A stretch of 64,000 bases of DNA, from the sequence record OP557969.1. One strand, written 5' to 3'. The notes beneath the pieces are model-generated. The model saw only the letters and a list, made by a program, of their open reading frames with translations, did not search any database and was not told the DNA's origin. Of this stretch, positions 17,523 through 33,572 are shown piece after piece (positions within the stretch are counted from its first letter, which is position 1; each line of letters begins with the position of its first letter). The position numbers and the translations under genes were made by a program. This stretch comes from Escherichia phage ph0011.

Positions 17523-17616
17523 TATATGGGTGTAATAGTTATAAAAAATTCCATTACACACCAAATCACTTCAGTGATTTATATCTTGACATTGAAAAAA
17601 ATAATTATGTATAGTT

Positions 17617-17647
17617 AGAGAACTTCATATGGAGTTCTCTTTTTTTA
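17617..17647 (+). terminator. intrinsic terminator
   Basis: 10-bp stem agagaacttc/ggagttctct, 4-nt loop, 7 T. Confidence 0.75.
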
Positions 17648-17660
17648 TAAGGGTGATTAA

Positions 17661-26696: not shown

Positions 26697-27107
26697 ATGA
26701 TTGAAATGGAAGGAACTCTGGTGTATGATCCAGATCGTGGCACTATGAAAAAGAAGAAGGACTTCTGGTTAGTACTACAACTTCCGTTACAGTTGGCTAG
26801 ATACTATCAGTACTTCATTCGAACTGACTTACATATTGACATTAAAGACCCACAATGGGGGGCACATGTCAGTATCGTTCGTGGTGAAGTGCCACCAAAT
26901 CCAGAGTACTGGAAAAAGTACGATGGTAAAAAAATAAAAATACGATTTAACCCTGATATTGTCCAAGTCAAAGATAAAAAGAATCCAGGTTCGTTCTTCA
27001 TTATTGAGTTTGATGATGAATTTATTGGGAATATTCGAAAAGAATTAGGATTACATTCTAAGTATTTACGATACCACATCACTGTAGGAAGAACGTACTA
27101 CGATTAG
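26697..27107 (+). CDS. hypothetical protein
   Basis: ORF track. Confidence 0.45.
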   Translation: MIEMEGTLVYDPDRGTMKKKKDFWLVLQLPLQLARYYQYFIRTDLHIDIKDPQWGAHVSIVRGEVPPNPEYWKKYDGKKIKIRFNPDIVQVKDKKNPGSFFIIEFDDEFIGNIRKELGLHSKYLRYHITVGRTYYD

Positions 27108-27125
27108 TTTTGTAGTAAATATTTC

Positions 27126-27153
27126 TTGACATAAAACAAAAACATGCTATAAT
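27126..27153 (+). promoter_or_regulatory. sigma70-type promoter TTGACA-16nt-TATAAT with TGn extended -10
   Basis: perfect hexamers TTGACA (27126) and TATAAT (27148) with 16-nt spacer, upstream of lysozyme gene. Confidence 0.6.
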
Positions 27154-27270
27154 ACTTAAACATTTGAAAAGAACGTTTTTGTACTGTAGAAAGTCCGATG
27201 AGGCTTTTGCAAAATGGCCTCTTTGCCATCTTTGTGATTGCCCATCTTAACAATCAACAAAGGAGGCGTT

Positions 27271-28197
27271 TTGAAACAAGCGAAAAAAGCACTGAAAACT
27301 AAAATTGCCGTAGGCGTATTAGTTTCATCAGCCCTATTCGCTGCTATTGGATTTTATGGTTTTTCACGACATGATCATGCACCATCATTAGACGAAAGTC
27401 AGGTGCATAATTTGAAACCACAGTTGACTCAAATTCAAAAGCAGGAACTACCACAGGTATCAGTACCGAAAACAGTTCCAAGCAGCGAGAAACATTATAC
27501 GGTTCAACCTGGTGATAGTTATTATTCTATTGCTAAAAAGTTTAAACCTAAAAATGTACAACTTGAAGAGTATGTTATTTTGTTGAAAAATATCAATTTA
27601 AATGCTACACTTCATACTTCTCAGGGTATCTTTATCCCAACAAAAGAGGATTTGAAGAACATATTATTACCAGATGTGACTGTTCTGTTTGATTACACTG
27701 ATCCAGAAATTATCAATCACATTAAAGAAGCTGAAGGTTCAATAGAATACCAGTCCAAGAATAAACGACGTTTACTGGGTGGTCAGGTTGGTGTTTCATA
27801 TCGTAATTCTAAATTTTATCCATACCGTGATGTAAAAGGTAACTATACGATTGGGTACGGTCACTACCTTGGTAAGAATGCTTCTGATGCAAGTAAGTAC
27901 CGTAACGGAATTACCAAATCACAAGCACATAAACTTTTATTGGATGACATGGAACGAATTAATAATGATTTAATTTTATTATTGAAGAAGCGAAATGCGA
28001 CAAACCTTACGGTCGAACAACAACGAATTTTATTTGAGATGGCATTTACTCTAGGAGTTGACAAGTTAAACACTTTCAATAAACTATGGAAAAGCGTTGA
28101 AAATCAAAATTACAACAAGTTCAAAAAAGAAATTAAGAATTCTCTATGGTATCGTCAAGTAGGAAACCGTGCAGAATTGTTGTTAAGCTCACTCTAA
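27271..28197 (+). CDS. peptidoglycan hydrolase: N-terminal signal-anchor/TM + LysM + T4-lysozyme-family (GH24) domain; likely TTG start
   Basis: AGGAGG 4 nt before TTG 27271 (ORF track uses TTG 27238); Gly/Ala-rich TM IAVGVLVSSALFAAIGFYGF; LysM YTVQPGDSYYSIAKKF; lysozyme motifs NYTIGYGHYLG and SLWYRQVGNRAELL. Confidence 0.8.
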   Translation: MKQAKKALKTKIAVGVLVSSALFAAIGFYGFSRHDHAPSLDESQVHNLKPQLTQIQKQELPQVSVPKTVPSSEKHYTVQPGDSYYSIAKKFKPKNVQLEEYVILLKNINLNATLHTSQGIFIPTKEDLKNILLPDVTVLFDYTDPEIINHIKEAEGSIEYQSKNKRRLLGGQVGVSYRNSKFYPYRDVKGNYTIGYGHYLGKNASDASKYRNGITKSQAHKLLLDDMERINNDLILLLKKRNATNLTVEQQRILFEMAFTLGVDKLNTFNKLWKSVENQNYNKFKKEIKNSLWYRQVGNRAELLLSSL

Positions 28198-28213
28198 AAA
28201 AGGTAGGTAAATT

Positions 28214-28546
28214 ATGCTAAATCTAAACATTCAAGGCAACATTGATATCACTCCAGCAATCCAAGATGCTATTTACAATGAAGCAAAAAGTCTGGATAAG
28301 TACCGTACTTCTTCAGTACTAGACATTGGTGTTCATGTTAAGAAAGAGCATAAAACTCAATATGCTGTAACTTTAACTGCTGGTAGTAAATCAGTGACTG
28401 CTGATGATGCTGATTTGTATAAAGCAATTGTTGAATCTTTTGATAAGATGGAAACTGTATTCAGTAAAGACAAAAGCATTAAATTGCACCGCCGAAACCA
28501 CCCAGAACATCCAGTTCTTGATGATTTGACAGAAAACGAAGAGTAA
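28214..28546 (+). CDS. hpf: ribosome hibernation promoting factor / RaiA (YfiA)-like protein
   Basis: MLNLNIQGNIDITPAIQDAIYNEAKSLDKY ... LYKAIVESFDKMETVF follows the HPF/YfiA pattern (MQLNITG.N.EIT.AL ... LEQY ... MYAAIDGLIDKL) as recalled. Confidence 0.65.
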   Translation: MLNLNIQGNIDITPAIQDAIYNEAKSLDKYRTSSVLDIGVHVKKEHKTQYAVTLTAGSKSVTADDADLYKAIVESFDKMETVFSKDKSIKLHRRNHPEHPVLDDLTENEE

Positions 28547-28556
28547 TATATACTAA

Positions 28557-28586
28557 AGGGACAGAATTAATCTGTCCCTTTTCTTA
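28557..28586 (+). terminator. intrinsic terminator
   Basis: agggacag/ctgtccct 8-bp stem, 7-nt loop, T-rich tail. Confidence 0.7.
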
Positions 28587-28599
28587 TGGAGTTTTAATT

Positions 28600-28995
28600 A
28601 TGAATTGTTCCTGGATGGAAATTGTAAAATCTCTAATATCAACACATGATATGGACTTACCTGAACACCTAGTTATTAATAGATGGTTCTATCCATATCC
28701 AGATAACCGTTGTGTTGGAATTGGATTTTTTATTAATGAAAAATCTCAATATATTGTATTAATTGAAGATTATACAAAAACCAATATTGCGTTCTCAATT
28801 GAGTTGAATGTAGATCACATAAAATACTACACCAATAAAATGGATGAAGACGATGGTGATGTTATAATTCCAGCAGAAATAGACGAAGCTTCATTTTTTC
28901 AGTTATCATTAATTCATAATGTATCTGATATTACTTATGATAATGTGAAAGACCTTTTTATATTGTACAATAAACTGTATAATTACTTTATATGA
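28600..28995 (+). CDS. hypothetical protein
   Basis: ORF track. Confidence 0.45.
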   Translation: MNCSWMEIVKSLISTHDMDLPEHLVINRWFYPYPDNRCVGIGFFINEKSQYIVLIEDYTKTNIAFSIELNVDHIKYYTNKMDEDDGDVIIPAEIDEASFFQLSLIHNVSDITYDNVKDLFILYNKLYNYFI

Positions 28996-29379
28996 TTGAG
29001 GTGTAAGTTGAGAAATACATTAATTAAAGTTAATTTATCACATTTCGACCCATATCAGAAATATGAAGAAAGTCGAAGATATAATATTAATGAATATTTC
29101 ACAATATATTTCAATAGAACATATAGCATGATCATCATTACTATTTGTAATCATATAAAAATTTGTATAACAAAAGACACAATAACTTTATACATTCAAG
29201 GCAAAGAAACTGATATTCCAACAGATTTGGATGAAGATGGATATGCTCAAGACGAATTCTTGAGAGATCACTTGTTGATTGAGTACAGCACTTATGCATT
29301 GATTAATTTCTACAAAGTAAATTACATTAAGTGGTTGTCTGGTGAATGTGATGATGGTATAATAGAGTATAATATATAA
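28996..29379 (+). CDS. hypothetical protein (TTG start per ORF track; uncertain)
   Basis: ORF track. Confidence 0.3.
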   Translation: MRCKLRNTLIKVNLSHFDPYQKYEESRRYNINEYFTIYFNRTYSMIIITICNHIKICITKDTITLYIQGKETDIPTDLDEDGYAQDEFLRDHLLIEYSTYALINFYKVNYIKWLSGECDDGIIEYNI

Positions 29380-29403
29380 TATATAATGAATACAATTATG
29401 CTT

Positions 29404-29511
29404 GAAGAAGATTAGGGTGTTTATTAACAAGAAATCGACGTGAACAAAGAACCAAAATACAAGCCTAATGGCTTCTGGGAACGTCTCTTTGATTGGCTGA
29501 TGGGGGAGTGA
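29404..29511 (+). repeat. direct repeat copy A (about 110 nt) of a micro-ORF element; this copy carries in-frame TAG and TAA
   Basis: gaagaagattAgggtgttt ... ggcttctgggaacgtct ... tgattggctgatgggggagtga; aligns with copy B at 30536..30643. Confidence 0.7.
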
Positions 29512-29696
29512 TGGAATATACAATATGTGCTATTATTTGTATCTTAGCTTTAATCTGTGGTGTTGGTGTGATGGTTTATTGTGATGTAGAACCCAGTACT
29601 GAAGTAGGTACAACCATCACATTTAAACCTGGTGTTAAAATTAATGATACCTATTGCTACAATCCAAACACAAACCGCTATGAGATTTGTTTATGA
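29511..29696 (+). CDS. small Cys-rich membrane protein (start moved to ATG overlapping repeat-A stop, TGATG)
   Basis: MEYTICAIICILALICGVGVMVYC hydrophobic N-terminus. Confidence 0.4.
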   Translation: MEYTICAIICILALICGVGVMVYCDVEPSTEVGTTITFKPGVKINDTYCYNPNTNRYEICL

Positions 29697-30100
29697 GAAC
29701 ATTCAACATTGTTCATATAATTGAACCGATTGCAGAACATATGAAAAACATAAGTAATAACGAGTCAGGTTTTTACTTCAATTTAGATAAACTTCATCGT
29801 TATACCAATGTATCTAGTTTTAATCGTGCTAAGAGACTTTATATCCGTATACACAACCTATGGTACAGTGATGATACGTTGATGATAGATATCACTGTTG
29901 ATGAAGACATAAAATTAAGATATATTGACGATTTTAAATCAGATGATATTCGTTCTGGTTCATTACCAATTGATGCTTCATATGAAGAATATCTGCAATA
30001 TCAGTTCATTGATGACACATTTGGCTTTGACTTTGAACTATATAATAGTATAATGAACGTATACCATATATATGAAAGGCATTTGAATGGACATTCGTAA
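29693..30100 (+). CDS. hypothetical protein, paralogue X1
   Basis: ATGA overlap; C-terminal YEEYLQYQFIDDTFGFDFELYNSIMNVYHIYERHL resembles next gene. Confidence 0.45.
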   Translation: MRTFNIVHIIEPIAEHMKNISNNESGFYFNLDKLHRYTNVSSFNRAKRLYIRIHNLWYSDDTLMIDITVDEDIKLRYIDDFKSDDIRSGSLPIDASYEEYLQYQFIDDTFGFDFELYNSIMNVYHIYERHLNGHS

Positions 30101-30509
30101 AATACCAAATTTCAACAGCACATTAAGGTTCTTTTCTGAACATGAAATCAGTACTGAAAGACGTGGTTTAGTTACATATAATCAACATCGTGTTATGTAC
30201 ACTAATAATTTTCAGGGTACTGTACGAATAAAATTTCGTAATGCGTTAGAAGAGAATGATGAATTGTTAATTTTACTAAGAAAAAGTAAGATTGAATTGA
30301 CATACGCAACTCACCATATTGAAAGTGAGTTGATGTGGCACACCCTATCAAAAAAAGAAGGTTCATTACCAGTTGTTGATAATGGTCCTGAAACACTTGA
30401 TCAGTACATGTTCATTGATGATACATTTAGTATTGACTATCCATCATTTCAGTGTATACTAGATATACATGCAAAATATTACGACCGTCTACGTGATAGA
30501 TTAATTTAA
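30087..30509 (+). CDS. hypothetical protein, paralogue X2
   Basis: C-terminal LDQYMFIDDTFSIDYPSFQCILDIHAKYYDRL parallels X1. Confidence 0.45.
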   Translation: MDIRKIPNFNSTLRFFSEHEISTERRGLVTYNQHRVMYTNNFQGTVRIKFRNALEENDELLILLRKSKIELTYATHHIESELMWHTLSKKEGSLPVVDNGPETLDQYMFIDDTFSIDYPSFQCILDIHAKYYDRLRDRLI

Positions 30510-30520
30510 TTGGAGGCATT

Positions 30521-30643
30521 GTGATTACAGTGTTAGAAGAAGATTGGGGTGTTTCCGAGCAAGGAACAGATGAATATGAATATCCAGAATATCAGCCAAA
30601 AGGCTTCTGGGAACGTCTACGTGATTGGTTGATGGGGGAATAA
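30521..30643 (+). CDS. candidate 40-aa micro-ORF (GTG start) ending ...KGFWERLRDWLMGE
   Basis: intact ORF only in copy B; GGAGG 4 nt upstream of GTG; stop 1 nt before cca ATG. Confidence 0.3.
   Translation: MITVLEEDWGVSEQGTDEYEYPEYQPKGFWERLRDWLMGE
30536..30643 (+). repeat. direct repeat copy B of the micro-ORF element
   Basis: shares 5' 20-nt and 3' ~45-nt blocks with copy A. Confidence 0.7.
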
Positions 30644-30644
30644 T

Positions 30645-31757
30645 ATGAAAAAGTATTTGGTTGGAGGTTATACGAGAGATCGTTTAATGGGCATCCGTGC
30701 AAAAGACAAAGATTATGTCATTGTTGGTGCAACTGAATCCGATATTAAGTACTTGCAAAGTATTGGTTATAAGCAAGTAGGCAAGGACTTCCCTGTGTAC
30801 TTGAGTCCAGAGGGTAATGAACACGCATTGGCTCGTACCGAGCGTAAGACTGGTACTGGATATGGTGGTTTCGAAGTGAATACAAAAGGTGTGACACTAG
30901 AACAAGATCTATATCGTCGTGATCTCACAATCAATAGTATTGCTTATGATCCAGTACTCCAGATTCACATCGACCCTTATGGTGGGAAAGCTGATATCAA
31001 GAACAAAGTACTTCGTCATGTATCAGAACACTTTAAAGAAGATCCATTGCGTGTTCTACGTTTGGCCCGTTTCGCTACACGTTATTCAGACTTTTCTATC
31101 CATGAAAGTACAGAGGAACTTGCTATTAGTATGGTCAATAGTGGTGAATTAGATCATCTTGTCCCAGACCGTGTTTTTGTTGAATTTGAAAAAGCACTTT
31201 CTGAAGAAAAACCATCTAAATTCCTCAAAACCCTAAGTAAATTTGGTTATTATGAGAAAGTTTTCAAAACATCTCTAACTAAAAAGAATTTAGACATAAT
31301 TGATTATATTTCTGATAACTGCACGGATGTATATAAACCATATTTCTTGTGGGCAGTACTTCTTGAAAATGAAGAAGTAGATAATAATTCTGTTCTAAAT
31401 GGTGCTATTAAAGTACCAGTAAAGTATGTAAAATTTAGTAATTACATCAAACGTTTTTCTGATGATATCAAAACCTTCCGAAAAAAGACCCCAGATGAAA
31501 TGGGTAATATTTTAATGGAAATGAATATCAAAAACAACGGAGGTGAAGGATTCCTTTATAAAGTATTGGAGTATTTCATTTTACGAAAAGAAATCGATTT
31601 AGAACATGAAGACCTGATTGTTAAAGTATATGACAGATATACTGATGTAGTATTACCTGATATTCAGCAACTGGTGAAAGACGGTGAACTTGAAACATCA
31701 GAAATTCGTGATTTTGTTTGTGGGCTACGTTACGAAGCAATTAAACAATTATTCTAA
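30645..31757 (+). CDS. cca: tRNA nucleotidyltransferase (CCA-adding enzyme / poly(A) polymerase family)
   Basis: MKKYLVGGYTRDRLMG ... GYKQVGKDFPVYL ... ALARTERK ... RRDLTINSIAYD matches class II nucleotidyltransferase head domain as recalled from E. coli Cca. Confidence 0.85.
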   Translation: MKKYLVGGYTRDRLMGIRAKDKDYVIVGATESDIKYLQSIGYKQVGKDFPVYLSPEGNEHALARTERKTGTGYGGFEVNTKGVTLEQDLYRRDLTINSIAYDPVLQIHIDPYGGKADIKNKVLRHVSEHFKEDPLRVLRLARFATRYSDFSIHESTEELAISMVNSGELDHLVPDRVFVEFEKALSEEKPSKFLKTLSKFGYYEKVFKTSLTKKNLDIIDYISDNCTDVYKPYFLWAVLLENEEVDNNSVLNGAIKVPVKYVKFSNYIKRFSDDIKTFRKKTPDEMGNILMEMNIKNNGGEGFLYKVLEYFILRKEIDLEHEDLIVKVYDRYTDVVLPDIQQLVKDGELETSEIRDFVCGLRYEAIKQLF

Positions 31758-31867
31758 AAAAATCGGGACAAAAAACCAATAACTGATATAATTATTAGTA
31801 TCTGAACATCGATTGATGACAAAGAGATAAGATATGCGTTATAGTTGTGGAATAATATTTTATCGTG

Positions 31868-32266
31868 ATGGGCAGATACTTATCGGGCATACAACACGGA
31901 CAGAATCATTGGGATTTACCTAAAGGGAAAGCTGAGGGTAATGAAACATTTAAAGAAGCTGCTGTCCGTGAGTGCTACGAAGAGACAGGATACGAAATTG
32001 ATGAAGATGATCTTTTGTTTCTTGGTGATGTTTCCTATAGAAAGGGAAAAAGGCTAGTACTTTTCTTTTATACTGCCAAAGACAAACCTGTACCTGAAGA
32101 ATTAGTTTGTAAAAGTACTTACACTAACAGATACGGTAAGAGTCATCCAGAATTGGATAAGTTCATGTACATTGATGTACGAGAATGTCAAAAGTATTTG
32201 ACTGAACGAATGTGTAACAGTATTATTAAAGCTGTTAAAGCTTTTCAAAGAAATAGAAGGAAATAA
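31868..32266 (+). CDS. Nudix hydrolase (apparent +1 frameshift relative to a 29-codon upstream ORF that encodes the expected N-terminal beta strands)
   Basis: Nudix box GKAEGNETFKEAAVRECYEETGY (Gx5Ex7REUxEExGU); WDLPKG upstream; N-terminal segment MRYSCGIIFYRDGQILIGHTT is in frame 31834..31923. Confidence 0.7.
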   Translation: MGRYLSGIQHGQNHWDLPKGKAEGNETFKEAAVRECYEETGYEIDEDDLLFLGDVSYRKGKRLVLFFYTAKDKPVPEELVCKSTYTNRYGKSHPELDKFMYIDVRECQKYLTERMCNSIIKAVKAFQRNRRK

Positions 32267-32267
32267 C

Positions 32268-32516
32268 ATGAAAGTTAAAATTTATGGTCGAAAGACTGGT
32301 TGTAAATTTTGCGATACAGCTAAAGCTGTGTGTGAACAAAATAATTTTGATATGGAGTTCATTGATATTGTTGCTGAAGGGATTGATGGTGCTAAACTAT
32401 CAGAAATTTGTGGTGAACCTGTGCGTCAAGTTCCACAGATTTTCGTGAATGATGTTTATGTACCTGGTGGTTGTACTGGATTTATCAACGGACTCAAAGA
32501 AGGTCATTGGAAATAA
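32268..32516 (+). CDS. nrdC: glutaredoxin/thioredoxin-like small redox protein (T4 NrdC-like)
   Basis: 82 aa with CKFC redox motif near N-terminus; position next to nucleotide-metabolism genes. Confidence 0.6.
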   Translation: MKVKIYGRKTGCKFCDTAKAVCEQNNFDMEFIDIVAEGIDGAKLSEICGEPVRQVPQIFVNDVYVPGGCTGFINGLKEGHWK

Positions 32517-32758
32517 TGGATATTGAAAAGGTATCATCTCGTGCAAAACATCTAGCTGATACATTGGGAGTTGAGTTTAAAATTCCTGATATTACAATAG
32601 CTAAAGAAAAAGCCCAGAAGAAAATCAATAAGATGAAAGAATATCTATCTAAACAGGAACAATATGATTCTGCTGTAGAATTTATTATACAATCTTTTAG
32701 TAAAGATGATATTAAAGCATTCATCCAATATGTGAAGGTTTCTGATAACCCTAAATAA
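32516..32758 (+). CDS. hypothetical protein (start at ATG overlapping nrdC stop, TAATG)
   Basis: in frame with ORF-track ORF 32471..32758. Confidence 0.45.
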   Translation: MDIEKVSSRAKHLADTLGVEFKIPDITIAKEKAQKKINKMKEYLSKQEQYDSAVEFIIQSFSKDDIKAFIQYVKVSDNPK

Positions 32759-32803
32759 TCATGAAGAACAAAAGTTCTTCATAACAATTTGGGAGATACT
32801 ATT

Positions 32804-33046
32804 ATGCTCAGTTTTCGTGAACAATTAGCAAAAGGTCAATTTCAGGCTAAAGCTCAAACTAACATTCCAAAAAAATCTGCTTTTTTGGGAACAATTACGG
32901 AAGATGGATATTGTGATTATGATGCACCAGAGGACTCATGGTACATCACAAAAGACACAAAACGCAGTAATAGACTTCACAAAAGTACAATAGCTAGAAA
33001 GCATCGAAAAGAATTGAAAAAAATCCGTTTCGGTGAAGAAGAATAA
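32804..33046 (+). CDS. hypothetical basic protein (start moved to ATG after GGGAGA)
   Basis: ORF-track frame. Confidence 0.4.
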   Translation: MLSFREQLAKGQFQAKAQTNIPKKSAFLGTITEDGYCDYDAPEDSWYITKDTKRSNRLHKSTIARKHRKELKKIRFGEEE

Positions 33047-33055
33047 TTTAAAATA

Positions 33056-33085
33056 AGGACTCTGACTATAGAGTCCTTTCTTTTC
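33056..33085 (+). terminator. intrinsic terminator
   Basis: aggactct/agagtcct 8-bp stem, T-rich tail. Confidence 0.7.
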
Positions 33086-33095
33086 GGAGAACATA

Positions 33096-33572
33096 ATGAT
33101 TCATGAACACAGAGGTAATCTGTTTGAATTATTCAGTACTGTAACAGATGATAATTCAGCATTACATATAATTGCTCATGGTTGTAACGCACAAGGTAAA
33201 ATGGGTTCAGGTTTTGCAAAAGAACTAAGAAATCGCTATCCAATGGCATATGATGATTATAAAGCATATGAAAAGGAAATGGGATTTCTAAGAACTGGGC
33301 AAATTTCATATTCTTTGGTAAGCAATGATTTGATTATTGCAAATTGTATTACGCAACAGTACTATGGCAATGATGGTAAAAAATATGTAAGTTATGATGC
33401 AGTTGACGATGTTTTTAAACAACTCAATTACTTATGTAATGTTGAACGAAGTATTCATGTGCACTTTCCGAAAATTGGAGCCGATTTGGGTGGTGGTAAC
33501 TGGAACGTTATCAAAGAAATCATTGATCATCGTTTGGTTAATGCAGAAAAACATTTATATATTCTAAAATAA
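33096..33572 (+). CDS. macro-domain (ADP-ribose-binding/processing) protein
   Basis: IIAHGCNAQGKMGSGFA ... FPKIGADLGGGNW pattern typical of macro/Appr-1-p processing domains. Confidence 0.55.
   Translation: MIHEHRGNLFELFSTVTDDNSALHIIAHGCNAQGKMGSGFAKELRNRYPMAYDDYKAYEKEMGFLRTGQISYSLVSNDLIIANCITQQYYGNDGKKYVSYDAVDDVFKQLNYLCNVERSIHVHFPKIGADLGGGNWNVIKEIIDHRLVNAEKHLYILK

Follow-up and report, generated by a model that had tools for sequence, protein, structure and literature searches.

In T4-type phages, PeSLs have been described as composites of a sigma-70-like promoter and a terminator stem-loop, which are present in many copies and between which recombination takes place (Arbiol et al. 2010, PMC2839356; Comeau et al. 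2014, PMC4122927). A preliminary description of the locus treated here, which is located in a DNA stretch of 64 kb (the window), drew an analogy to these regulatory cassettes for two direct repeats seeming to bracket three genes. Like PeSLs, the repeats are short and are situated in a large myovirus, in a hyperplastic region rich in orphan genes where close relatives differ by indels. However, they are coding, exist in two copies instead of many dispersed ones, share neither a promoter nor a terminator stem-loop within the unit, and the indel breakpoints are located elsewhere, so that the analogy was not upheld. Cis-acting leader or arrest peptides like TnaC and SecM offer a second comparison, being also encoded by a short open reading frame for a conserved, Trp-containing peptide directly upstream of another gene. 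The third comparison is the small-protein family of phage 121Q gp538 (phrog_34272). It is highly probable that both direct repeats are copies of one small protein-coding gene of this family, and that the duplicate was obtained by recombination.

By a repeat search of the window, positions 29399-29512 were aligned with 30531-30644 over 114 nt without gaps, with 85 of the 114 nt identical (75%). When each 114-mer was scanned on both strands of the window, the partner gave 85 matches, compared to a mean of 30 (sd 4.9) and a runner-up of 52-53 matches, so that the pair is far above chance. Alignment with MAFFT identified a first conserved block, GAAGAAGATT[A/G]GGGTGTTT, and a second one, GGCTTCTGGGAACGTCT...TGATTGG.TGATGGGGGA, while the longest perfect match between the copies is 17 nt. 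The two elements of about 110 nt with two shared blocks were thereby recovered as initially described. A search for extra copies had been proposed; exactly two are present in the window, both in the 114-mer scan and with the family HMM, and the genomes of relatives contain at most two, the duplicated CMSTMSU assembly excepted. A weaker similarity of 23 nt (83%) between the 3' end of the second paralogous gene described below (30483-30505) and positions 30611-30633 of the micro-ORF is on par with many chance pairs.

The downstream repeat, copy B (30521..30643; all genes are on the plus strand), is an intact reading frame of 40 codons from GTG at 30521 to TAA at 30643, coding for an acidic protein of 40 amino acids. 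It has its own ribosome-binding site, GGAGG, with the GTG start 4 nt beyond, and covers 40 of the 40 positions of the phrog_34272 profile (E 3.2e-31). Its amino acid identity to 121Q gp538, which occupies the same place upstream of cca, is 92.5%. The gene cca (30645..31757) codes for the CCA-adding tRNA nucleotidyltransferase (Pfam PolyA_pol, E 1.2e-17; PolyA_pol_RNAbd, E 1.6e-8), and its ATG at 30645 is separated by 1 nt from the stop of copy B, whose final codons ATG GGG GAA form a Shine-Dalgarno-like G-run for cca.

The micro-ORF of this family codes for an acidic peptide of 40-41 amino acids, in which LEEDWGVS at the N-terminus is followed by an acidic linker that varies and, at the C-terminus, by an amphipathic helix, (F/L)WERLxDWL. 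As a whole, the acidic family spans 38-49 amino acids, and accounts for only 8 of the clusters in a set of 1.84 billion representative proteins. All family features are present in copy B, a full-length member: a length of about 38-49 codons, an N-terminal (L/I)EE(D/N)WGV and, at the C-terminus, an amphipathic helix with W-x-(D/E)-(K/R)-(L/I). An AlphaFold model of the micro-ORF product with a mean pLDDT of 61 contains, at low confidence, two short helices coinciding with the two motifs. No Pfam match was obtained for either micro-ORF, for the orphan gene or for the membrane protein. Proteins of 70 amino acids with "EENWDVSENGTD" from Epseptimavirus (T5-like) were considered as homologs and rejected (tblastn E = 9; 19.6 bits with the family HMM); they were not recovered at E <= 1e-3 in an exhaustive profile search. 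The amino acid sequence of copy B is subject to strong purifying selection: in comparisons of B orthologs and of the single-copy genes of the JNE01 type, dN/dS is 0.05-0.19 at dS values of 0.27-1.6, with the reservation that for the micro-ORF, here and below, only a few substitutions in about 40 codons enter the estimates. The repeats thus encode a conserved micro-ORF, as had been proposed.

The arrangement of a gene block containing HPF, the micro-ORF, cca, NUDIX and glutaredoxin genes was identified in the window, in 121Q, in PBECO4, in a metagenome contig and in phages fENko-Kae01, 7t3 and XaC1. For fENko-Kae01, LC-MS/MS notes exist on neighbouring genes, and none on the micro-ORF. All relatives that were examined contain one or more intact copies, as a rule directly upstream of cca, and the micro-ORF adjoins cca also in jumbo phages of Klebsiella, Salmonella and Xanthomonas, with CCA enzymes that are only 55-58% identical.

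The upstream repeat, copy A (29386..29511), is the pseudogene of a 41-codon gene of the same family, as seen from a codon alignment with five intact orthologs. Its frame, which is shared with copy B, starts with an ATG at 29386 and ends with TGA at 29511. This ATG was absent from the preliminary description. The frame is interrupted by TAG at 29413-29415 (codon 10, a conserved Trp position) and by TAA at 29425-29427 (codon 14), and since the first stop takes the place of the Trp codon in the N-terminal motif and the second that of codon 14, copy A is classified as a pseudogene; it belongs to the family by descent and differs from it in the two stops and in lacking a ribosome-binding site. Turkey3, Ecwhy_1, WPEC5, fEgEco12 and EC.P1 have an intact copy A, annotated as a coding sequence, with TTG and GAA at codons 10 and 14. 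Because copy A is intact in these relatives, the stops are, judged from the alignment, recent single-base changes, from TTG or TGG to TAG and from GAA to TAA. In principle, the nonsense codons in the window might be sequencing errors; however, they are two independent substitutions, and homopolymer indels are not involved.

Further signs of decay were identified. A comparison of the start contexts revealed that the Shine-Dalgarno sequence is gone from copy A in all two-copy genomes. In addition, a 7-nt tandem duplication, TATAATA (29368..29374), parts the stop of the preceding orphan gene from the ATG of copy A. Of the relatives with two copies, Turkey3 and WPEC5 were aligned over this junction; both are devoid of the duplication, and their stop and start overlap as TAATG. 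The remnant in the window still gives 54 bits with the family HMM built in this analysis, and the intact ortholog from Turkey3 matches phrog_34272 with E 3.5e-16. For the A copies compared to JNE01/Turkey5, dN/dS is 0.32-0.40; for copy A of the window compared to that of Turkey3 it is 0.91, a value based on few sites, with 4 nonsynonymous and 1 synonymous substitutions besides the stops. Copy A is thus probably redundant and decaying, and a pseudogene in this genome.

The membrane-protein gene following copy A (29511..29696) codes for a protein of 61 amino acids that is rich in Cys and has a hydrophobic segment at the N-terminus (phrog_4189, 121Q gp535 homolog), and its ATG overlaps the TGA of copy A as TGATG. 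It is followed by two genes of phrog_20693, homologs of 121Q gp536 (29693..30100) and gp537 (30087..30509), which are paralogous to each other (BLASTP E 3e-8). The gene content between the copies, a small Cys-rich membrane protein and two paralogs, was therefore described correctly at the outset, as were the interruption of copy A by TAG and TAA, the intact 40-codon frame of copy B abutting the cca start, and the tight spacing of both copies to the gene downstream. The published fEgEco12 paper contains no discussion of these genes.

The left anchor of the variable region is a conserved gene for an HPF/RaiA-type ribosome hibernation factor (28214..28546; Pfam Ribosomal_S30AE, E 2.5e-10), which is annotated as HPF in relatives. 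At 28526..28585, also on the plus strand, a sigma-70-like promoter match (TTGACA-17-TATACT) followed by a hairpin (GGGACAG-AATTAAT-CTGTCCC) and a T-run is kept in the aligned relatives; by its sequence, it is likely a terminator/promoter composite ahead of the gene block, located outside of the repeat and unrelated to it. The 121Q gp534 homolog (28600..28995; phrog_36582) belongs to the 121Q/PBECO4-type backbone up to about 28992. Next, an orphan gene for a protein of 123 amino acids (29008..29379) has a TTG start, as annotated in relatives, and a ribosome-binding site, GAGGTG. No Pfam or PHROG match was obtained for it. It is known from only 8 phage records, in every one of which the micro-ORF follows directly, and its dN/dS compared to JNE01 is 0.26-0.30.

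A recombinant patch of about 0.58 kb of the JNE01/Turkey5 type was identified at 28994..29575 on the plus strand, within which 18 of the 20 informative sites are JNE01-like. It extends over the orphan gene and copy A into the membrane-protein gene, of which it includes the 5' third. Outside of the patch, the informative sites are PBECO4-like on both sides, including 91 of the 98 in the gp534 homolog, whose nucleotide identity is 97.5% to PBECO4 and 79% to JNE01. Identity to JNE01 is 93, 90 and 90% in the segments of the patch and 76-79% in the flanks. The crossovers were placed at about 28993, at the 3' end of the gp534 homolog, and at 29575-29603 inside the membrane-protein gene, which is chimeric, with a JNE01-like 5' part and a PBECO4-like 3' part.

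Among the relatives, three architectures of the locus were identified. Phages of the JNE01 type contain a single micro-ORF upstream of the membrane-protein gene, and positions 29697-30635 are deleted. Phages of the 121Q/PBECO4 type are devoid of 29003-29504 and contain the micro-ORF downstream of the membrane-protein gene, with two further genes in between. Two copies are seen in a minority of genomes, namely 6 of about 35 records of the Asteriusvirus type. Homologous recombination of a JNE01/Turkey5-type with a 121Q/PBECO4-type genome would thus have united both versions of the micro-ORF in one genome, and the sequence pattern suggests a JNE01-type donor and a 121Q-type recipient backbone. 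On this reading, the repeat seems to bracket three genes because the recombinant inherited both versions of the gene. After recombination, the redundant copy A would have accumulated decay to become a pseudogene here, and the similarity remaining between the copies would reflect shared ancestry, past selection at the protein level and recent inactivation.

A vertical origin, in which the two-copy layout is ancestral, having arisen by tandem duplication of a gene together with the micro-ORF, and the 121Q and JNE01 types emerged by deletion without a lateral patch, is improbable. Both deletions would in that case sit at gene boundaries, and the genes for about 125-140 amino acids in front of the micro-ORFs have a weak C-terminal pattern in common (hhalign P about 1e-3), which would fit an old duplication of such a unit; in comparisons among the orphan, gp534 and gp536/537 families, hhalign gave probabilities of only 6-26%, always for the same C-terminal stretch. 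BLASTP detected no similarity that would make the orphan gene and copy A a diverged tandem duplicate of gp537 and copy B. However, neither the higher identity of the patch to JNE01 compared to its flanks nor the sharp switches of the informative sites from PBECO4 to JNE01 and back is predicted by vertical descent with deletions, and outgroup jumbo phages contain a single micro-ORF. It is still less probable, and indeed very doubtful, that the repeats serve as recombination substrates mobilising the three bracketed genes by PeSL-like shuffling or mini-circle excision. Direct repeats 1.1 kb apart might recombine in principle, and the locus is rich in indels, so that its recombinational polymorphism among relatives, as suggested before, was borne out. 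The suggested role of the repeats as cassette boundaries was not: the breakpoints lie outside of the repeat, the unit of the actual indel is the orphan gene plus copy A, and no relative was found to have gained or lost exactly the three bracketed genes. The predicted product of recombination between the copies, an orphan gene followed by a hybrid micro-ORF and cca, is absent from all 8 records with the orphan gene, the perfect match between the copies is short, only two copies exist in 64 kb, and the features of PeSLs are missing.

For the repeats themselves, a DNA- or RNA-level function had been suggested from their nucleotide conservation despite the stops; they would then be a regulatory site, a structured RNA or a promoter cassette with an incidental coding frame. 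Identity of 75% does persist between the copies, at the 3' ends of which Shine-Dalgarno-like G-runs are used by the downstream genes. Such a function is not needed, since copy A is intact in relatives, its stops are recent, and the differences in the conserved blocks, between A and B and among orthologs, are mostly synonymous. The low dN/dS of the orthologs and the distant homologs from Klebsiella and Xanthomonas, in which amino acid motifs are conserved and nucleotides are not, also argue against it, and it is regarded as extremely improbable. On folding, neither copy was better than shuffles (z -0.20 and +0.66 on the plus strand, -0.74 and -0.72 on the minus strand), and no Rfam match was found in 28000-32000, so that an RNA-level function was rejected. 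A promoter/terminator cassette was rejected likewise: a sigma-70 scan identified no promoter-like site in register in both copies (27000-33500 contains 34 matches, compared to 34.4 expected from shuffles), no terminator-like site was found on the plus strand of either copy, and a custom hairpin scan of the window revealed no repeated hairpin family. A minus-strand terminator-like site in copy A (29474-29461; 5-bp stem, 5 T in a tail of 8) has no counterpart in copy B. Only slightly less remote is the chance that copy A is still functional here, by a peptide of 23 amino acids from GTG at 29440 or by read-through. The frame at 29440-29511 preserves the C-terminal helix NGFWERLFDWLMGE, and copy A of the window keeps a conserved Trp, while Leu is found in place of the two conserved Trp residues in the five relatives. 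Against this, the GTG is not preceded by a Shine-Dalgarno sequence, the peptide is devoid of the most conserved, N-terminal motif, the excess of nonsynonymous changes relative to Turkey3 does not fit a functional copy, and read-through would need suppression at two different stop codons. No tRNA genes were found in the window, and a suppressor tRNA or recoding was rejected. A cis-acting leader peptide that controls translation of cca by ribosome arrest or coupling is unlikely. The distance of 0-2 nt from the micro-ORF stop to the following start in coliphages and XaC1, the adjacency to cca retained across very divergent jumbo phages and the conserved, Trp-rich peptide are consistent with it. 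Unlike in TnaC- or SecM-like leaders, however, conservation peaks at the N-terminus and not beside the stop codon, and a cis position is not obligatory: the micro-ORF is separated from cca by the membrane-protein gene in JNE01/Turkey5 and by a 355-aa gene in A4, and is still intact and constrained. In Klebsiella and Salmonella phages, an 11-nt spacer and a separate Shine-Dalgarno sequence follow the micro-ORF.

The family protein might be a small, trans-acting binding peptide with a link to the phage tRNA/translation gene block, and the 3' codons of each copy would double as ribosome-binding site for the following gene. More specifically, a trans-acting partner or regulator of the CCA enzyme or the tRNA-repair block (HPF, cca, NUDIX, glutaredoxin and macro domain), or else a small anti-defence peptide, can be suggested with much reservation. 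If such a role were correct, it would be the reason why the micro-ORF has stayed beside cca in jumbo phages of Escherichia, Klebsiella, Salmonella and Xanthomonas, and the natural genomes in which the second of two copies decays would show that one dose is enough.

The locus is a case of ordinary phage mosaicism by homologous recombination, to which it corresponds in the sharp switches of the nearest relative, in the crossovers, which are situated at genes or inside them where the sequence is conserved, and in the redundant copy that gains missense, nonsense and RBS-loss mutations. The sole peculiarity is that both parental types had this small gene, each at a position of its own. The presence or absence of the bracketed cassette in relatives, put forward as a check, gave a divided answer, in that the locus is polymorphic and the exact three-gene cassette is not the unit which varies. 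For annotation, this means one intact gp538-family gene and one pseudogene, and not a repeat-bounded cassette or a regulatory element. The locus shows neatly and on a small scale how a duplicate arises when two phage lineages that differ in gene order recombine, and how it decays afterwards; beyond annotation, its significance is small. Since an acidic family of 38-49 amino acids is held directly upstream of cca in very divergent jumbo phages, it is a reasonable candidate for a functional study of small proteins.

Two segments of the window, 29399-29512 and 30531-30644, match at 85 of 114 positions without a gap, the longest perfect match being 17 nt. When either 114-mer was slid over both strands of the whole window, the background was 30 ± 4.9 matches and the next-best position reached 52-53, giving a copy number of exactly two, in agreement with the family HMM. 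Copy B is a 40-codon ORF (GTG 30521 to TAA 30643) preceded by GGAGG and separated by 1 nt from the ATG of cca, the gene for the CCA-adding enzyme. Copy A (ATG 29386 to TGA 29511) comprises 41 codons in the same frame, with in-frame TAG (29413-29415) and TAA (29425-29427), and its TGA overlaps the ATG of the following gene. Between the copies, genes were identified for a Cys-rich protein of 61 aa, hydrophobic in an N-terminal segment (phrog_4189; 29511-29696), and for two paralogs, P1 and P2 (phrog_20693; 29693-30100 and 30087-30509; BLASTP E 3e-8). Every feature of the preliminary description, from the repeats and ORFs to the genes in between, is present.

Both copies have their match in a single catalogued family of phage proteins, phrog_34272 (121Q gp538). 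Copy B, which matches the full 40-position profile with E 3.2e-31, is an ordinary member of this family; the intact form of copy A matches with E 3.5e-16. The two blocks described earlier correspond to the family's two conserved motifs, (L/I)EE(D/N)WGV(S/N) at the N-terminus and the amphipathic helix (F/L/S)W(E/Y/W)(R/D)(L/K)... at the C-terminus. Conservation is restricted to these motifs in the distant homologs, which come from Klebsiella phage fENko-Kae01, Salmonella phage 7t3, Xanthomonas phage XaC1 and metagenomes. Synonymous changes predominate overwhelmingly among B orthologs and the single-copy JNE01-type genes (dN/dS 0.05-0.19, dS up to about 1.6), so that it is the peptide that is under selection. 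Counted from the sequence, its net charge is about -8, which makes it strongly acidic; the structure prediction, of low confidence, places a short helix at each of the two motifs and a disordered linker between them. The family comprises four clusters at 90% identity, and eight representative clusters in a set of 1.84 billion proteins; all members that the searches identified come from jumbo phages or from metagenome-derived sequences. In T5-like phages (Escherichia phage Eps7, L012, 1402-1614), a 70-aa protein contains EENWDVSENGTD, which is similar to the family N-terminal motif EEDWGVSEQGTD, and scores 19.6 bits with the family HMM; it was absent from the results of the exhaustive profile search, so that its homology to the family is unproven.

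At the position of copy A, an intact 41-codon CDS (MNTIILEEDLGVYEQETDVNKEPEYKPNGFLERLFDWLMGE) is annotated in Turkey3, Ecwhy_1, WPEC5, fEgEco12 and EC.P1, each independently sequenced. Compared with these five relatives, both stops of the window are single-base changes (TTG to TAG and GAA to TAA). The four further substitutions are all nonsynonymous, and at the one synonymous site, GAA/GAG at codon 32, the relatives themselves are divided. In the single-copy gene of JNE01 (MNTIMLEEDWGVSEQGTDEYKEPEYKPKGFWERLFDWLMGE), no conserved residue has been lost and the ribosome-binding site, GGAG, is in place; upstream of copy A this site is gone in every two-copy genome (GTGGAGC to GTATAAT), and both conserved Trp are Leu in copy A of the five relatives. 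For the A copies compared with the JNE01-type gene, dN/dS is 0.32-0.40, several-fold over the family norm, and for window A compared with Turkey3 A it is 0.91, from few sites. In the window, in addition to the stops, a 7-nt duplication (29368-29374) disrupts the TAATG overlap with the upstream gene. Copy A in this genome is a pseudogene of phrog_34272 and has decayed as a redundant copy would be expected to.

The region matches 36 phage records and is about 90% identical in nucleotide sequence to Escherichia phage Turkey3 and related jumbo coliphages of 350-380 kb, the 121Q/PBECO4 group (Asteriusvirus). The local gene order is lysozyme, ribosome hibernation factor (HPF), gp534 homolog, a variable stretch, CCA-adding enzyme, NUDIX, glutaredoxin and macro-domain protein. 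When the architectures between gp534 and cca were compared, three main types were identified, in line with the recombination-polymorphic locus proposed earlier. In T1 (121Q, PBECO4 and most others), the order is membrane protein, P1, P2, micro-ORF, cca; in T3 (JNE01, Turkey5), it is orphan gene, micro-ORF, membrane protein, cca. T2, comprising the window and six records, contains orphan gene (123 aa, 29008-29379), micro-ORF A, membrane protein, P1, P2, micro-ORF B and cca. Nucleotide identity between window and JNE01 rises from 76-79% in HPF, gp534, the 3' part of the membrane-protein gene and cca to 90% both in copy A and in the 5' part of the membrane-protein gene, and to 93% in the orphan gene. 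Of the informative sites, which distinguish PBECO4 from JNE01, the window agrees with PBECO4 up to 28992 in gp534 (91/98), with JNE01 from 28994 to 29574 (18/20) and with PBECO4 again from 29601 on (29/36). The window is therefore a T1-type backbone with a T3-type patch of about 0.58 kb, for which these comparisons show a history different from that of its flanks; the crossovers map to the 3' end of gp534 and the inside of the membrane-protein gene. Transfer would have been from T3 type into T1 type. The same small gene lies on opposite sides of the membrane-protein gene in the two parental types, so that the recombinant would have inherited both versions, which would explain the "direct repeat" and the apparent bracketing of three genes.

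The preliminary description had instead seen a cassette bounded by the repeats. However, the segment missing from T1 genomes is 29003-29504, the orphan gene and copy A, not the three bracketed genes; the crossovers lie outside the repeats, and no A x B deletion product was found among the eight genomes with the orphan gene. A function of the repeats at the DNA or RNA level had also been suggested. On both strands, the folding of each copy is no better than that of shuffled sequence, no Rfam family was matched, and no promoter or + strand terminator consensus is common to both copies. Such an element is neither needed nor supported; the proposed micro-ORF is upheld. The PeSL cassettes of T4-type phages, to which the repeats had been likened, are composites of a strong sigma-70-like promoter and a terminator stem-loop, present in many copies in hyperplastic regions, where recombination between PeSLs leads to indels (PMC2839356, PMC4122927). 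None of these four features, promoter, stem-loop, many copies and repeat-to-repeat recombination indels, was found for the A/B repeat, and the analogy does not hold. The locus works like the usual modular evolution of phages, in which diverged relatives recombine homologously, and is a new but unremarkable instance of mosaic recombination.

A PeSL-type composition is resembled not by the A/B repeat but by a site between HPF and the gp534 homolog (28526-28585), where a sigma-70-like promoter match, TTGACA-17-TATACT (11/12), is directly followed by a perfect hairpin, GGGACAG-AATTAAT-CTGTCCC, and a T-run. This hairpin occurs once in the window and is kept in relatives, and a gp534 deletion in phage WPEC3 adjoins it. 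A second such composite was identified at about 17560-17650, with a promoter-like TTGACA-18-TATAGT at most 60 nt upstream of a terminator-like hairpin (17617-17640) unrelated in sequence to the one at 28558. More mosaic breakpoints lie at gene boundaries in 30521-32516: micro-ORF B is 99.2% identical to Turkey3 and the adjoining cca 85.7% (about 86% to every relative), and NUDIX is 95.5% identical to PBECO4 and 87.9% to Turkey3. In Salmonella phage SD-15_S21 (L005, 2308-2409), a further indel variant, the micro-ORF is preceded by a stub ORF of 33 aa (MFIDDTFSIDYPSF...DRLRDRLI), the C-terminal remnant after deletion of P1 and most of P2. The orphan gene, both phrog_20693 paralogs and the gp534 homolog (28600-30509) end in a similar (I/L)P..(D/E)..E...Q....I.Y stretch, and each of the three family pairs gave an hhalign alignment over one and the same C-terminal region, at low probability (6-26%); they may represent an old tandem array of remote paralogs. 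The UNVERIFIED record of Escherichia phage CMSTMSU (L010) contains many frameshifts in the region, a cca broken into several CDSs, a copy A fused to the membrane-protein gene through a missing G, and the locus twice, probably by assembly or sequencing error rather than biology.

The position of the micro-ORF directly upstream of cca is kept in phages with CCA enzymes only 55-58% identical to that of the window, and the gene content from HPF to the micro-ORF is free to vary and differs in each lineage. The block from HPF to micro-ORF, cca, NUDIX and glutaredoxin is syntenic in fENko-Kae01 (L011, 3001-3144), 7t3 (L016, 3001-3144) and XaC1 (L018, 3501-3641). In Escherichia phage A4 (L015, 3133-4200), the otherwise conserved adjacency is interrupted by a gene of 355 aa that lies exactly between micro-ORF and cca and has a treble-clef zinc finger (DUF4379, E 2e-7); it may be a mobile, homing-endonuclease-like insertion. 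Since the last micro-ORF codons repeatedly give a Shine-Dalgarno-like G-run for the following gene, and stop and start are 0-2 nt apart in coliphages and XaC1, the translational coupling suggested earlier is plausible. The ORF is intact and constrained even where other genes separate it from cca (JNE01, Turkey5, A4), and its peptide is most strongly conserved N-terminally, so that a small binding protein acting in trans seems likelier than a leader peptide acting in cis. The one lead to retain is that the pairing between this micro-protein and the CCA-adding enzyme of the phages is conserved.
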